NCBI GenBank assembly: GCA_903958625.1
Contig: CAJBTU010000425.1
Location: 1-49,347 of the forward strand
DNA: 49,347 nt
Source: an uncultured Ignavibacteriota bacterium
GTDB taxonomy: Bacteria; Bacteroidota; Ignavibacteria; UBA10030; UBA8401
Direction of reading: 5' to 3'
In this document: one piece after another, positions 17,407-30,571 of the stretch
How the letters are laid out: the number at the start of each line of letters is the position of its first letter
Numbering within the stretch: position 1 is the first letter of the stretch
Notes under the pieces: generated by a model
The model's input: only the letters and a program-made list of their open reading frames with translations
Databases searched by the model: none
Told to the model about the DNA's origin: nothing
Position numbers and translations under genes: made by a program

Positions 17407-17479
<73 letters not shown>

Positions 17480-17483
17480 CAAG

Positions 17484-17729
17484 ATGTGTTTCGTATATAT
17501 TCTTCAAAGCATTAAATCCGGCAAATTCTATGTTGGTCATGCCTTGGATCTTCCAAAGAGGCTCAACCATCATAATAGCGGATATTCCAAGTCGACAAAA
17601 TCAGGTGTTCCGTGGGAAATCGTTCATACCGAAGAATACCAAACTCGATCTGATGCGATGAAGAGAGAATATGAAATTAAGGCAATGAAAAGCAGAACAT
17701 ACATCCTTCATCTGATAAAAAAGAATTAA
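17484..17729 (+). CDS. Small stand-alone GIY-YIG nuclease (81 aa)
   Basis: FVYILQS...FYVG, KRLNHHNSG, TKSGVPW, AMKREYEIK; starts 4 nt after the tRNA. Confidence 0.88.
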   Translation: MCFVYILQSIKSGKFYVGHALDLPKRLNHHNSGYSKSTKSGVPWEIVHTEEYQTRSDAMKREYEIKAMKSRTYILHLIKKN

Positions 17730-19122: not shown

Positions 19123-21408
19123 TTATCTTAAGAGCAGGGCAAGTTGTGCCGGCCTTTTCTTTTTAGCCGCTTTCCTTTTCTCCGTAACGGACTGCAGATC
19201 GAGTTCTTCCTTCAATACCTCCATTGAGTATCCCAGGGGCTGCAGCAGTGTCTCCGCCGCTTCCAGCACCATCTCGGAGTATTTCTCCGCATCGTAGCCG
19301 TCATCCAACGCATACAACGCCAGCGGTTTCGCTTTCATCGGGTCTTTCTTTCCGGTTGAATCCGTAATGATATACTGAATGCTTTCCCCCGCCATCAATT
19401 GAACGCCCGCTTCCGCAAGAGTCTGCGACACGATGGCGCTGACGCTGTTGTTCTCATATTCAAACGGATCTTTCGAAATGCGGCGCCGGATCACCAGTTC
19501 AAACGGTGAAACATTCCCTTGTTTCAGATCATTGATGTATTGTTTCGTCACTTTCAGCACTTCCGGCACCAGCATGTTCACGCCGGCAATATCATCCGCG
19601 CCGGACAGCACTTTCAGCATCGCTTGCTGCGCTTTCTGAACGTACTTCGGCACATCTTTTCTCCGCACCTCAATTCCCCGTACCTTGAATTCATTGGTAT
19701 CATATTGACCAACATAGCGTGTTGCCGTCGGAATTTCTTCGTCCATTTTTGAGACGGGAAACAATATCCACTTATATATTCCTTCAACGGATATTTTGAT
19801 GCCTGTTCCCTCTTCGATCTTTTTGGCAAGCAAAGCATACTCTTCGTGTGTGGCACCCTGCTTCTTCAGCCAGACACAATCAATGATCGCGTGGATTAGT
19901 TCAAAACCATCCTGCTCGGCGATCTCCTTGGCGCGAAGCAGCGTATCACGTGCAAACGCGTTCACCGATTCATGCGCTTCTATCCTGCCGAGGCGCGATT
20001 TTTTAAAGCCGAGATAACCGAAGCAGGTTACCAGTATCCATTTCAACGCGGATTGTTTATTGTCGTACCTCTTCCGCACTTCTTCCGTTGGCGCATCCGC
20101 TCTCAGTTCCTTATACCGCGCCCGTTTTTTGATGATCGGATCCAATGTTGCCGGGACCAATCCTCTCCGTTTTTCGCAGATGCGGAAACCTATCTCGGGG
20201 ACAAGATGCCGGGAATCAGGACAGCAGGGACAATCCAGCGTTTCGGTGGAGATATTATTGTTTCTCATGATCGTCGGATACATCGAAGCAAAATCCAGTT
20301 CCGCCACCTGTTCGTGATATCCGATCTCCGGCATAAAGTGAAGTCCGCCCCTGTCCGACTTCAACAATGTTGTCAGCGATTTGAACGCCTCCTTGATCGG
20401 ACGCTTGTACGGAACAAGAACATTGTTCCTGTACGTCCACGATATCTGCATGGATGACAATGCTGAACCGATGCTCGTGCGCGCCTGCTGCTGCACACCT
20501 ATCTGCGACATTCGTGCAAGGTCATACAATCCGTCAAGATCCCCCTCATTGATAATGAATGAATTCTCCTTGTCCAGATGCCAGCGGCCGGAGAGGGCGA
20601 ACGTGCCGTCCCTCTGCTTTACTTGTCCATAGGAAAAATAGGTGATCGCTTTTGAGAACATGAATCCTGCACCCGCATCACGGTTAAGATAGAGCGGCAT
20701 GTTCAGTTCCGATGCGGTCTGCTGCAGCATCGGCAGCAATGTTGCATCGCCATACTCGGTCAGAATTACGTCCGGATCGTATTTGTAAAGGTAATAGTTT
20801 ATCTGATTGATCAGTTCCCGCGGCGATTCCTGCTGCAGTACGCTCTTTCTTCCCTCCACTTCTATTTCGATCTCCAGATAACGCTGATACTTCGGCGCCA
20901 GAAGTTTTGCCGAAGGAGAAAGTGTCATAACCGTCAGAGGCGGAACATTATACGTTTCCGCCTCCATTCTTTCAAGCAGATTCCACGACTTCAGAAGACC
21001 GTTCTCTATCGTATATTCTCCGTACGCCAGCGGAAATAACTGTGTCGTATAGTAGAACATCTGCACCGCTTTGATGTCGGCATTGTAGAATTGATAGAAC
21101 TTAAATTGTTTGGAAAGCGTCCTTACAGTCTTTTGAAGCAGGTTGGGATTGTGAACATGTACGGCATAAACGTCAACATCGTTATTGGAGAGCAGATCCA
21201 TCTTCGCCGTCTTTGTCATCGTCACTTGATACGGAAGACGAAGAAGGACTTCGCGAAGCGTGACCGCTTCCTGCTCCGAAATGTGCAGATAGAAGCAGGG
21301 GGCAAAAGGAAATGCTGTCTTATGCCGTTTCCCGTCGGCATCGATGATCCAGACCGTCATCCCGGTATCGTTCACATACGCGTCAAACAGCCATCCTTGC
21401 AGTGTCAT
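19123..21408 (-). CDS. Family B DNA polymerase, archaeal PolB2/Dpo2-like
   Basis: Motif A LDFASMYP, motif B KQSALKWILVTCFGYLG, variant motif C HAIIDCVW, KVRGIEVRRKD, CPCC...C insertion. ATGA overlap with the upstream gene. Confidence 0.88.
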   Translation of the reverse strand: MTLQGWLFDAYVNDTGMTVWIIDADGKRHKTAFPFAPCFYLHISEQEAVTLREVLLRLPYQVTMTKTAKMDLLSNNDVDVYAVHVHNPNLLQKTVRTLSKQFKFYQFYNADIKAVQMFYYTTQLFPLAYGEYTIENGLLKSWNLLERMEAETYNVPPLTVMTLSPSAKLLAPKYQRYLEIEIEVEGRKSVLQQESPRELINQINYYLYKYDPDVILTEYGDATLLPMLQQTASELNMPLYLNRDAGAGFMFSKAITYFSYGQVKQRDGTFALSGRWHLDKENSFIINEGDLDGLYDLARMSQIGVQQQARTSIGSALSSMQISWTYRNNVLVPYKRPIKEAFKSLTTLLKSDRGGLHFMPEIGYHEQVAELDFASMYPTIMRNNNISTETLDCPCCPDSRHLVPEIGFRICEKRRGLVPATLDPIIKKRARYKELRADAPTEEVRKRYDNKQSALKWILVTCFGYLGFKKSRLGRIEAHESVNAFARDTLLRAKEIAEQDGFELIHAIIDCVWLKKQGATHEEYALLAKKIEEGTGIKISVEGIYKWILFPVSKMDEEIPTATRYVGQYDTNEFKVRGIEVRRKDVPKYVQKAQQAMLKVLSGADDIAGVNMLVPEVLKVTKQYINDLKQGNVSPFELVIRRRISKDPFEYENNSVSAIVSQTLAEAGVQLMAGESIQYIITDSTGKKDPMKAKPLALYALDDGYDAEKYSEMVLEAAETLLQPLGYSMEVLKEELDLQSVTEKRKAAKKKRPAQLALLLR

Positions 21409-21665
21409 ATCTCCTCCCCGTAATTTCGTAAGCGTTCTTTCAGTTCGTGGAGTTCTCCAACGAGTTTGACCAGGACGGATAACGTGATCTTATCCATCGT
21501 GATCGGTGTCGTTTGGAACGCGATCGACGGAAGATTCCGTTTAGCAATGCGAAATATCTCATCGAAGTGCTCCTGCTGCTCTTTTCGGAGCGCCCGGCGG
21601 AAGTTTCCCCACCGTTCCCGTTCCTTGTCGATGAGCCTTGTTGCGGTCGCTATCAGTCTTCCCAT
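21405..21665 (-). CDS. 86-aa helical PolB2-associated protein (arCOG07300-like)
   Basis: MGRLIATATRLIDKERERWGNFRRALRKEQQEHFDEIF matches the recalled archaeal MGR...W..FRRALR..D...FD pattern; GAGG upstream of ATG 21665. Confidence 0.75.
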   Translation of the reverse strand: MGRLIATATRLIDKERERWGNFRRALRKEQQEHFDEIFRIAKRNLPSIAFQTTPITMDKITLSVLVKLVGELHELKERLRNYGEEI

Positions 21666-22254
21666 TTCTTCCTCGTCTGGCGGGTGAGTGGTGGTATTCT
21701 TTGTCGATCCTGTAAGTGACATCGCTGATCCCCTTGAATGCGTTGAAATACTCTTCCCGTTCTTTCAATTGAAAATGGAGCGGCGTTGAGACAAGCAGCG
21801 TGGAGATATTCTCCGTTTTCAGTTGATCGAATGTCTGTTTGATCCTTGCAAGGATGTCGTGAATATCCGGAATGGAAACTTGTTCATCGTCGATAAGGTC
21901 CAATAGTCCGAAGACCATCACTGTTTTTGCATTCGTCTTTTTCATGAATGCGGCCAAGCCGTCGGTGATTGCCACATCGACCTGATAGAATGTATAGCAC
22001 CGGCTGATGAATCCCCTCTGCATAAGTTCTTCCGGTTCAAGGCCTGCCGTCTTGAAGATGCCCGCAATAAAGAACGGATCGGTCGTATTCGCCGCATCAA
22101 CGATCACCACCGGTTCTTTCTTGCGCAGAAGTTCAGCGGCAACAAGCATAGCGGTATGATAGATGCCGTAATTGCCATGCAGAAAATTGATCGCCGGCGA
22201 CGATGTTTCCATTGCCAGTTGTATCGTTCTATATGATTGAATGACTGTTTCCAT
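21559..22254 (-). CDS. Inactivated RecA/RadA-superfamily ATPase (ImuA-like role)
   Basis: VVIVDAANTTDP, FISRCYTFYQ and strand-helix pattern of the RecA core; Walker A position reads HGNYGIYH with no GKT. Confidence 0.7.
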   Translation of the reverse strand: METVIQSYRTIQLAMETSSPAINFLHGNYGIYHTAMLVAAELLRKKEPVVIVDAANTTDPFFIAGIFKTAGLEPEELMQRGFISRCYTFYQVDVAITDGLAAFMKKTNAKTVMVFGLLDLIDDEQVSIPDIHDILARIKQTFDQLKTENISTLLVSTPLHFQLKEREEYFNAFKGISDVTYRIDKEYHHSPARRGRNGKTDSDRNKAHRQGTGTVGKLPPGAPKRAAGALR

Positions 22255-22307
22255 AAAGACAAAAGCCCGACAGCGCAGGACTTGTTCGTCCTTTCGCTAT
22301 CGGGCTT
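22254..22307 (-). terminator. Terminator-like hairpin between the leader ORF and the RecA-like gene
   Basis: AAGCCCGATAGCG-AA-AGGAC-GAACAA-GTCCT-G-CGCTGTCGGGCTT, then TTGTCTTT-ATG. Confidence 0.6.
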
Positions 22308-22330
22308 GAAGGTCTCAACACCCGTATACG

Positions 22331-22531
22331 TTAGATCACTTTTCTTAACTTATGCTTCGACCGAAATGAAACTTCTATATCCCCGACAACTTTTCCGGCC
22401 TCGCGCGGGAAATAAATCTGTATGCCGCCGTAATGGTCCTCCGGAGATCTCACGTTCAGGATGTCCAATATTTTATTGAGATACGAGTTGATCTTTTCCC
22501 GCTCTTCTATTGTATAATCACCGCTCGTCAT
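22331..22531 (-). CDS. 66-aa hypothetical leader protein
   Basis: ATG about 65 nt below the predicted promoter; purine-rich upstream sequence (GGAGAACAGGG); helix-then-strands pattern HYGGIQIYF...GKVVGDIEV. Confidence 0.55.
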   Translation of the reverse strand: MTSGDYTIEEREKINSYLNKILDILNVRSPEDHYGGIQIYFPREAGKVVGDIEVSFRSKHKLRKVI

Positions 22532-22581
22532 ATTCGCCCTGTTCTCCAGAATTTCACCGTAGTATTGCCGGTCAATTTTTG

Positions 22582-22632
22582 CTGTATAAATTTACACTGT
22601 ATAAATTTACAGTATTTTGAATAACTTGTCAA
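22582..22632 (-). promoter_or_regulatory. Sigma70 promoter overlapped by tandem SOS-box-like operators
   Basis: -35 TTGACA (22632-22627), N17, -10 TAAATT (22609-22604); 15-bp tandem repeat CTGTATAAATTTACA x2; box 22597-22612 is a perfect CTGT-N8-ACAG. Confidence 0.75.
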
Positions 22633-22750
22633 GTCTTTTTTTTACAAAATAATTTGTTTCAGTGACGATCCGACTGACTGAACAAGGAAAATGTTCGATG
22701 AAATATATTTCCTGAGAAATTTTATTTCATTTCATAGACGTAAAAACATC

Positions 22751-22805: not shown

Positions 22806-22895
22806 GGAGAGGTGGGTGAGTGGCTTAAACCAGCGGTTTGCTAAACCGCCGTACGGGGTTAACCTGTACCGAGGGTTCAAATCCCTCCTTCTCCG
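22806..22895 (+). tRNA. tRNA-Ser(GCU)
   Basis: GGAGAGG acceptor, GCGGT-TTGCTAA-ACCGC anticodon arm, long variable arm, GGTTCAAATCC. Confidence 0.95.
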
Positions 22896-22906
22896 CAATA
22901 ATTGTT

Positions 22907-22981
22907 CGGGGTGTGGCTCAGCCCGGTTAGAGCGCGTGGTTCGGGACCACGAGGTCGGAGGTTCGAATCCTCTCACCCCGA
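22907..22981 (+). tRNA. tRNA-Pro(CGG)
   Basis: CGGGGTG/CACCCCG acceptor, CGTGG-TTCGGGA-CCACG anticodon arm, GGTTCGAATCC. Confidence 0.95.
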
Positions 22982-22994
22982 CAACTAAAAAAAG

Positions 22995-29896: not shown

Positions 29897-30571
29897 ATGG
29901 TAAAAAAACAATCACAAAAATCCGGAAAAACATCTGTTCGGGAAGCAGCTATTGATTGGAATAAAGAACTGCTTCCTCTCTTCAAAAAATACAAAGGCAA
30001 AAAACACCCGCTCCAATTCCAAAATCCATATCAGTTGATGGTAATGATCGTTCTTTCCGCCCGCGCTTCCGATGTCATGGTCAACAATCTGGCGCCGGAA
30101 TTTTTCAAACGCTATCCGACATTCGGTCGCCTTGCAAAAGCTACGCCTGCGGAACTGTTTCCGTTACTGCGGGTTCCCGGATTCAGAAAAAAGGCTGAGT
30201 GGATCATCGATATAGCTCAATCGGTTGAGAAGTTACCGGCCATACCGGCAACAATTGGTGAACTGACAAAATTGAAAGGATTCGGCAGAAAGTCTGCAAA
30301 TGTGTATATGAGTCAGATCGGTTTGCCGGCAGAAGGAGTGATCGTCGACCTGCATACGCTTCGCGTTGCACCGCGTTTAGGGATTGCCGCAGGAACAGAT
30401 CCCAAAAAGATCGAGCAAATGCTGATGGATTGTGTGCACAAAAAGAACTGGCATATTCTGGGTATGTCGCTAACGTATCTAGGAAGAGAAACGTGTAGAC
30501 CGACAGATCCAAAGTGCGAAGAGTGTTTGGTAAAAATAGTTTGTCTGTTCAATCAGCAGAAGAAAAAGTAA
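29897..30571 (+). CDS. nth: Endonuclease III (HhH-GPD DNA glycosylase with 4Fe-4S motif)
   Basis: LKGFGRKSANV (catalytic K), VDLH, C-X6-C-X2-C-X5-C (CRPTDPKCEECLVKIVC). Confidence 0.85.
   Translation: MVKKQSQKSGKTSVREAAIDWNKELLPLFKKYKGKKHPLQFQNPYQLMVMIVLSARASDVMVNNLAPEFFKRYPTFGRLAKATPAELFPLLRVPGFRKKAEWIIDIAQSVEKLPAIPATIGELTKLKGFGRKSANVYMSQIGLPAEGVIVDLHTLRVAPRLGIAAGTDPKKIEQMLMDCVHKKNWHILGMSLTYLGRETCRPTDPKCEECLVKIVCLFNQQKKK

Follow-up and report, generated by a model that had tools for sequence, protein, structure and literature searches.

An archaeal-type PolB2 mutasome operon with an SOS-type operator in an uncultured Ignavibacteriota bacterium

Genes for the archaeal-type DNA polymerase PolB2, a small arCOG07300 protein and an inactivated RadA are linked in several bacterial genomes, and some of the bacterial operons include lexA, implying a role in the response to DNA damage (Makarova et al. 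2014, PMC4104785). Timinskas, Timinskas & Venclovas 2025 (PMC11791011) describe bacterial iRadA-PPB2-PolB2 operons, infer a single archaea-to-bacteria transfer, and report an enrichment of lexA, an MGRT arm on PPB2 and 'shuttling' beta-clamp motifs, terming the complex a mutasome comparable to Pol V. In the archaeon Sulfolobus islandicus the Dpo2 system is damage-inducible and required for targeted mutagenesis (PMC11791011). Here we analyse a 49-kb stretch of DNA from an uncultured Ignavibacteriota bacterium (contig CAJBTU010000425.1; 49,347 nt, hereafter the window), which carries an operon of this kind on its minus strand at 19123-22632.

An initial annotation of this DNA had held that the complete regulated system was new. 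That part of the claim is not borne out, because the two papers already describe such systems, and the window contains a clear, rather than a new, example of the published PolB2 mutasome operon under an SOS-type operator. Since an archaeal PolB2 cassette under SOS control has already been published, the finding opens no new question. We consider it likely that the locus is a bacterial PolB2 operon of type 1a (iRadA-PPB2-PolB2), archaeal-derived and inherited within an Ignavibacteria/Bacteroidota clade, which would act as a LexA-controlled, damage-inducible mutasome. Within the parts of the literature searched, no bacterial PolB2 system has been studied experimentally, and this locus is clean and well delimited, with a readable E. 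coli-like operator and a minimal layout that make it convenient for heterologous tests.

The locus shares with the bacterial group 1a operons (PMC11791011) the same three protein families in the same order, the MGR N terminus of PPB2, the IID variant in the polymerase, a DK loop, a clamp motif on one subunit and an association with lexA; the tables of that paper include Ignavibacteriota and Bacteroidota operons with IID and QLSLF. It differs from the published group 1a operons in that lexA is missing from the window locus but the operator is kept, in an extra small gene (orf66) and a terminator-like element, and in an iRadA/PPB2 overlap of 107 nt that is out of frame, whereas the published genes are separate or fused. 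In the parts of PMC11791011 and PMC4104785 consulted we did not meet orf66, the terminator element, the out-of-frame overlap or the lexA-less variant, the main texts having been left unsearched for a small upstream gene or a terminator; the term 'overlap' is absent from the supplements of PMC11791011. The Sulfolobus islandicus Dpo2 system has three homologous proteins, the same IID variant and an exonuclease that is dead, as that of the window polymerase is judged to be from the alignment. Unlike the window, Sulfolobales have the gene order PPB2-PolB2-iRadA, regulation that reportedly involves an Orc1/Cdc6 homolog rather than LexA, and PCNA rather than the beta clamp.

Gene content and conservation of the operon

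The promoter, a small gene, the terminator-like element and the three PolB2-associated genes all fit within 3.5 kb. The trio and the motifs of the polymerase are as follows.

21559-22254, minus strand: iRadA, RadA/Rad51 fold, 231 aa, with a degenerate P-loop HGNYGIYHT at 22153-22179 (homologs, AlphaFold2 (AF2), Foldseek, hhalign)
21559-21665, minus strand: out-of-frame overlap of iRadA and PPB2, 107 nt, PPB2 in the +1 frame
21405-21665, minus strand: PPB2 (arCOG07300 / Pfam DUF8156), 86 aa, starting MGR (hhalign, BLASTP, homolog annotation)
19123-21408, minus strand: PolB2, family B DNA polymerase, 761 aa (Pfam, NCBIfam, pairwise alignments, motifs)
20557-20583, minus strand: PolB2 DK loop WHLDKENSF, aa 276-284 (alignment to archaeal PolB2)
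20275-20295, minus strand: PolB2 motif A, DFASMYP (sequence reading)
19867-19893, minus strand: PolB2 motif C, HAIIDCVWL, aa 506-514, the first Asp of DxD being Ile (sequence reading)
19129-19146, minus strand: PolB2 C-terminal QLALLL, a beta-clamp-binding-type motif (comparison with orthologs)

Calling open reading frames (ORFs) returned the three minus-strand genes just where the initial annotation had placed them, together with the ATGA overlap between the 86-aa ORF and the polymerase gene (21405-21408). That annotation had also described the 231-aa product as RecA-like without Walker A, and the P-loop position is indeed occupied by HGNYGIYHT (aa 26-34), which has no Walker A lysine. It was right on the trio, its promoter and the boxes over it; orf66, the terminator-like element, the 107-nt overlap and the absence of lexA went unmentioned.

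We collected 22 related loci (designated L and a number) from genome, metagenome and assembly collections, comprising metagenome-assembled genomes (MAGs) of Ignavibacteria/Bacteroidota and one Leptospira contig. The polymerase of the window is 97% identical to that of an 'Ignavibacteriae' MAG. As the initial annotation had expected, the gene trio is conserved: iRadA, PPB2 and PolB2 occur in the same order at 17 of the 22 loci, with three further contigs ending inside the operon and two loci having the polymerase gene only. In 14 loci the operon is preceded by a canonical lexA; the layout is lexA-orf66-iRadA-PPB2-PolB2 in 11 of these, and in the other three lexA comes directly before iRadA. A metagenome scan with an iRadA profile returned only 9 loci.

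The polymerase is of the archaeal PolB2 type

The polymerase contains a Pfam DNA_pol_B domain (E 2.9e-33). Among NCBIfam models, two archaeal-type 'type B DNA polymerase' families score highest (NF004418, 389 bits, E 1e-116; NF004416, 377 bits, E 1e-112), against at most 173 bits for archaeal Pol I-type (PolB1-type) models. The Pol II equivalogs NF004421, NF004422 and NF004420 reach 51, 38 and 30 bits (E 7e-14) against cut-offs of 570-1435. Over their full length, residues 1-391 align with a Nitrososphaerota PolB2 (31% identity, E 9e-60) and with a published Ignavibacteriales PolB2 (45% identity, E 4e-131). Both reference sequences are listed in supplementary tables by Timinskas et al. 2025. 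In a PDB search, solved PolB3 and PolB1 structures align only from residue 287 onwards. By these model rankings and alignments the polymerase is a PolB2 (archaeal-type, Dpo2 group), closer to archaeal PolB2 than to Pol II, PolB1 or PolB3, and the initial view that it is no ordinary bacterial Pol II stands.

The string HAIIDCVWL is identical to one in a published Ignavibacteriales PolB2 table entry, and its IID is the variant given for S. islandicus Dpo2 (PMC11791011). Motif A and the second Asp of motif C are kept. The exonuclease domain falls under the Pfam threshold (E 0.061) and its ExoII-equivalent stretch reads EYGDATLLPML; read from the alignment, the exonuclease active site is lost. WHLDKENSF aligns to IHIDTDNSF of archaeal PolB2 and so has the form of a D(K/R) loop, and it is preceded by GTFALSG, which resembles the FxxA of the putative iRadA-binding beta-alpha motif. 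The counterparts of QLALLL at the C termini of orthologs are QLDLLL or the canonical QLSLF, which argues that QLALLL is a beta-clamp-type motif; QLSLF is listed for a Bacteroidota PolB2 by Timinskas et al. 2025 (PMC11791011). DNA_pol_B was the only polymerase domain found in the Pfam and NCBIfam scans, with no IMS (Y-family) or DnaE domain.

iRadA and PPB2 match their archaeal namesakes

iRadA has about 30 homologs of equal length. In its AF2 model residues 1-185 are predicted with high confidence and residues 186-231 are disordered, and all 50 of the 50 Foldseek PDB matches listed are RadA, Rad51, DMC1 or Rad51-paralogue cores (E about 1e-9, probability 1.0). The profile of the family matches Methanomassiliicoccus iRadA with an hhalign probability of 98.2% (E 3e-14), and no GK[ST] occurs among the invariant columns of the homolog alignment. 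The protein is a RadA/Rad51 ATPase core that has no N-terminal helical domain and an inactivated ATPase site. Model, structural matches and profile alignment all bear out the RecA fold that had been proposed for this accessory protein.

The PPB2 ORF is open upstream to an ATG at 21722, and we set its start at MGR because of homology, giving the N terminus MGRLIATATR. Similarity of this small protein to arCOG07300, also anticipated by the initial annotation, is clear: aligned with ten archaeal PPB2/arCOG07300 proteins from a published supplement, the PPB2 profile gives an hhalign probability of 98.6% (E 6e-16) from residue 1. BLASTP finds 30% identity to a Lokiarchaeota PPB2 (E 5e-12), and the protein aligns from Met1 with the Leptospira PPB2. 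Homologs carry PF26485 (DUF8156), a label taken from their precomputed annotations. On these alignments the window protein is a member of the PPB2 family, a class of small helical proteins of ~90 aa with an MGR(T) arm. Public gene calls either start PPB2 at the upstream ATG (105 aa; extension 21666-21722) or omit it owing to the iRadA overlap (L020-L023), an annotation artefact through which surveys could miss PolB2 operons.

The operator is the one that precedes lexA in sister loci

Upstream of the genes lies a promoter with two overlapping boxes.

22627-22632, minus strand: -35 hexamer TTGACA (promoter scan; kept in all homologous promoters)
22604-22609, minus strand: -10 TAAATT, with a 17-nt spacer from the -35 (promoter scan)
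22596-22614, minus strand: putative SOS (LexA) box 1, TACTGTAAATTTATACAGT, covering the -10; core CTGT-N8-ACAG at 22597-22612
22582-22597, minus strand: putative SOS box 2, GTGTAAATTTATACAG, with a one-base overlap with box 1 and a 15-nt offset

The SOS-box-like repeats noticed in the initial annotation are present as two overlapping CTGT-N8-ACAG-type boxes that cover the -10, the string TACTGTAAATTTATACAG/TGTAAATTTATACAG spanning 22582-22614. A single exact CTGT-N8-ACAG is weak alone, with 0.28 expected per window and at least one in 25 of 100 shuffles, and the significance of the operator therefore comes from comparison with the related loci. The 15-nt unit that is tandemly duplicated in the window is kept in tandem in all close loci, and L012 and L021 have three units. 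Six homologous loci with unrelated flanks have almost the same promoter-operator block, and the motif [C/G]TGT-N8-ACA[G/C] with an AT spacer is essentially confined to these operators in 254 kb of related DNA.

The same block is found in front of lexA. The lexA promoters of L012, L020 and L021 bear the TTGACA of the window together with the TACTGTAAATTTATACAG-TGTAAATATATACAG block, and close variants of the operator, for example TACTGTATATTTTTACAGTATAAATATATACAG, lie ahead of lexA in L015, L017, L019, L022 and L023; in all, nine lexA promoters bear the TTGACA and boxes of the window or a close variant of them. These sister-locus genes are canonical, encoding LexA_DNA_bind and Peptidase_S24 domains. 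In a search of solved structures the L020 LexA is closest to the top-scoring LexA chains 1JHH/3JSO (E 2e-38), which we take to be E. coli LexA, and its recognition helix reads NAAKDHILTL where that of the top PDB LexA reads NAAEEHLKAL. Because this promoter-operator block precedes canonical lexA genes in sister loci, the boxes of the window are very probably LexA operators. The identity of the two operators supports the repressor-controlled, SOS-type reading of the initial annotation.

In the window and in L001, L002, L003, L005 and L011 the block stands directly before orf66 and lexA is absent, yet lexA is kept in closer relatives such as L020, a pattern of patchy loss. The 5' untranslated regions of the lexA-less loci contain no lexA remnants. 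Patchy loss of lexA with the operator kept implies a trans-acting LexA: we infer that the operon-borne lexA was lost in some lineages, in which a LexA of the same specificity would act in trans. LexA binding and DNA-damage induction would be expected from such an operator.

Some members of the clade have divergent operators. L014 and L016 have a palindrome of another kind, which in L014 (the L016 contig is without the lexA start) reads TGATAGTT-N10-AACTATCA, and L008 has GTGT-N8-ACAC at 1437-1470. These variants suggest that LexA specificity has drifted within the clade.

orf66 and a terminator-like RNA element precede the trio

Two conserved features separate the promoter from iRadA.

22331-22531, minus strand: orf66, a conserved 66-aa protein, first gene behind the operator (gapless family alignment)
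22255-22323, minus strand: conserved RNA element, terminator/attenuator-like (fold energy, covariation, covariance model)

The 11 distinct orf66 sequences from 17 loci align without a gap, with 38-88% identity and 19 invariant residues, and in 11 sister loci the gene sits between lexA and iRadA. The family is narrow, with only two further short 50%-identity clusters among 1.84 billion representatives, and has no credible Pfam, PDB profile or PADLOC match. A single-sequence AF2 model (pLDDT 62) suggests, at low confidence, a helix and a beta-hairpin. The family alignment marks orf66 as a real, clade-restricted gene.

The RNA element is made up of a GGGTGTTGA motif (22315-22323), a long hairpin CAAGCCCG...CGGGCTT (~22263-22308) and a T-run (22255-22264), and across loci it takes the form of an invariant GGGTkGTTGA, a short variable loop, the long hairpin and then the T-run. 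Hairpin and T-run (22255-22307) lie just ahead of iRadA, with the hairpin end 10 nt from the ATG; in seven loci the iRadA ATG falls within about 10 nt of the T-run. The base of the hairpin, CAAGCCCG/CGGGCTT, is invariant and its upper part covaries, with compensatory changes in 9 of 17 pairs. The element of the window folds at -33 kcal/mol (z = -8). A covariance model finds exactly one copy per locus in the 17 loci with orf66 and none elsewhere in 252 kb, and a scan of 22150-22700 found no Rfam family. Because it combines a stable GC-rich hairpin, a U-run and a conserved position, we read the element as an intrinsic terminator or attenuator. The promoter scan found no sigma-70-like promoter between 22604 and 22254, and as there is no promoter-like site between the SOS promoter and iRadA, the trio would be expressed by read-through.

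In an alternative fold, at -9.6 to -11.4 kcal/mol, the invariant 5' motif pairs with the terminator's 5' arm, which would explain why the base of the stem is invariant. Only one pair of this hypothetical hairpin covaries, and a covariation score as high as that observed arises in 40 of 500 shuffles. The RNA could adopt two states, one a GGGUkGUUGA...UCAAGCCC hairpin and the other the terminator, with the CAAGCCCG arm common to both. orf66 and the RNA element always go together: 17 loci have both, and L007, L008 and L018 have neither. It is conceivable, although we would rate it as rather improbable, that orf66 and a two-state RNA element form a second, post-initiation checkpoint of antitermination or attenuation, to which the iRadA/PPB2 overlap might add a setting of subunit ratios. 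If so, the mutasome genes would be transcribed only once the first SOS product had accumulated. The terminator element, orf66 and the kept overlap are in this sense small leads on how expression of an error-prone polymerase may be restrained.

Small GIY-YIG genes and hairpin-rich repeats resembling miniature inverted-repeat transposable elements flank the terminator element in several loci (L002, 4293-5154; L020, 9293-10066; L012/L021; L015/L023).

Overlapping genes suggest translational coupling

The 3' end of iRadA runs 107 nt into the 5' end of PPB2, which is read in the +1 frame. Of 15 related loci, 14 have an overlap of 104-107 nt and L013 has one of 173 nt; in Leptospira it is 44 nt. The part of iRadA that is overlapped is predicted by AF2 to be disordered. 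PPB2 third positions, which are iRadA first positions, vary at 19 of 35 sites inside the overlap and at 19 of 51 outside it; the greater variation inside indicates that the amino-acid sequence of the iRadA tail is unconstrained, and we rejected selection on that sequence for this reason. The iRadA frame is open in every locus, and synonymous resampling gives this a chance of 0.03-0.43 per locus in 8 of 10 loci tested; the frame may have been kept open beyond chance, which is suggestive only as the lineages are not independent.

An SD-like (Shine-Dalgarno-like) GAGGAAG stands before the PPB2 ATG, inside the iRadA ORF (21666-21680), and an SD-like GGGGAGGAG stands before PolB2, inside the PPB2 ORF (21409-21425). 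No SD-like sequence was found ahead of iRadA or orf66. This bacterial group mostly does not use SD sites, so strong SD-like sites are unusual there. From these signals iRadA, PPB2 and PolB2 appear to be translationally coupled.

A proposed route to damage-induced mutagenesis and its alternatives

In undamaged cells, a LexA encoded elsewhere in the genome would sit on the two overlapping CTGT-N8-ACAG-type boxes over the -10 of the TTGACA promoter. DNA damage would lead to RecA-stimulated self-cleavage of LexA, leaving the promoter free. The resulting transcript would encode orf66 first and then reach the terminator-like hairpin, where termination may be partial; because there is no other promoter-like site in between, only read-through transcripts would get to iRadA, PPB2 and PolB2. 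Translation of the trio would be coupled, through the 107-nt overlap and the internal SD-like site ahead of PPB2 and through the ATGA overlap that follows GGGGAGGAG ahead of PolB2. The products may then form the PolB2 / iRadA / PPB2-trimer complex modelled by Timinskas et al., in which one PPB2 N-terminal arm lies between PolB2 and iRadA, an arrangement known from published models only (PMC11791011). Exonuclease-dead PolB2, tethered to the beta clamp by its C-terminal QLALLL, would extend past lesions and so produce damage-induced mutations; translesion and mutagenic activity of this kind is known only for Sulfolobus Dpo2.

Several points weigh against a LexA-controlled mutasome. The PolB2 placement derives from ranking of hidden Markov models and from pairwise and profile alignments rather than from a tree. 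The first catalytic Asp of motif C is Ile, and activity of the polymerase is assumed by analogy with Sulfolobus Dpo2, which likewise has IID. The 49-kb window contains no lexA, the repressor being assumed to be encoded elsewhere. A search of sequencing runs found DNA of the window in lake-water DNA metagenomes only and returned no RNA-seq runs with the operon region. Finally, the hairpin looks like an efficient terminator, and if termination were complete the trio would be uncoupled from the SOS promoter.

The IID in place of DxD, the sub-threshold exonuclease domain and the missing Walker A lysine of iRadA would also fit a complex that lacks catalytic activity and serves some purpose other than polymerisation, such as a structural or regulatory part in repair or in the restart of replication. 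Makarova et al. 2014 (PMC4104785) originally read the 'inactivated' PolB2 in this way. However, the isolated PolB2 subunit of S. islandicus, with the same IID, is an active translesion polymerase in vitro (PMC11791011), motif A DFASMYP and the second motif C Asp are kept in the window protein, and the C-terminal beta-clamp motif is kept across orthologs, so that we regard a dead complex as unlikely. Doubts about the regulation carry less weight still. A repressor other than LexA could bind the operator, or the boxes could be mere promoter elements, placing the operon outside the SOS response; lexA is absent from both the locus and the window, a single CTGT-N8-ACAG is not significant by itself, and a different palindrome precedes lexA in the relatives L014/L016. 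Against this, an identical block precedes canonical lexA in sister loci, in the classic layout of autoregulation, the block is conserved where its flanks are not, and in its recognition helix LexA is similar to the top PDB matches, presumably E. coli LexA. We therefore think it very improbable that the boxes serve anything other than LexA.

Effectively refuted is the idea of an ordinary bacterial Pol II, or of a replication or defence module belonging to a mobile element or prophage. In its favour, the enzyme belongs to polymerase family B, there are tRNA genes on both sides of the region (17407-17480 and 22806-22982), and some orthologous loci have GIY-YIG genes and a Y1 transposase nearby, but Pol II models score far under their cut-offs. 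We rejected a defence or mobile-element origin since there are no relevant PADLOC matches and the window shares with L020/L021 a chromosomal synteny of alpha-amylase, NAGPA, the operon, OmpA and a permease; the GC content of the operon (0.48-0.50) is only slightly above the 0.42-0.48 typical of the neighbouring DNA. A LexA-controlled PolB2 mutasome thus remains the reading that we favour.

Comparison with SOS-controlled polymerases

In some Proteobacteria, imuA-imuB-dnaE2 cassettes are headed by a second copy of lexA, which is often lost. The operon of the window resembles these cassettes in being an error-prone polymerase module under LexA control (inferred for the window), with an inactive RecA-fold protein and a cassette-heading lexA that is patchily lost. 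The parallel with imuABC drawn in the initial annotation is thus a fair analogy but not a case of membership: no Y-family (ImuB) or C-family (DnaE2) polymerase was found, the polymerase here belonging to family B and the small subunit being PPB2. E. coli Pol V (UmuD'2C-RecA) is similar as an SOS-induced mutasome with a RecA-family protein and clamp binding, and E. coli Pol II as an enzyme of family B that is regulated by LexA and carries a clamp motif at its C terminus. Unlike the window system, Pol V is a Y-family enzyme, and Pol II is a single subunit with active proofreading whose NCBIfam models are not matched here.

In colicin promoters two LexA boxes, offset by 15 bp and sharing one base, cover the promoter, a layout linked to tight repression and late induction. 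The window boxes likewise share a single base at a 15-nt offset and lie over the promoter; the host is a different one, as are the genes under control.

Neighbouring genes

An 81-aa GIY-YIG ORF at 17484-17729 of the window adjoins tRNA-Ala. In L020, a Y1 transposase follows PolB2. A gene for an HhH-GPD base-excision glycosylase (29897-30571, plus strand) lies 7 kb from the operon, with no obvious operon link, and occupies the same syntenic position in L021.

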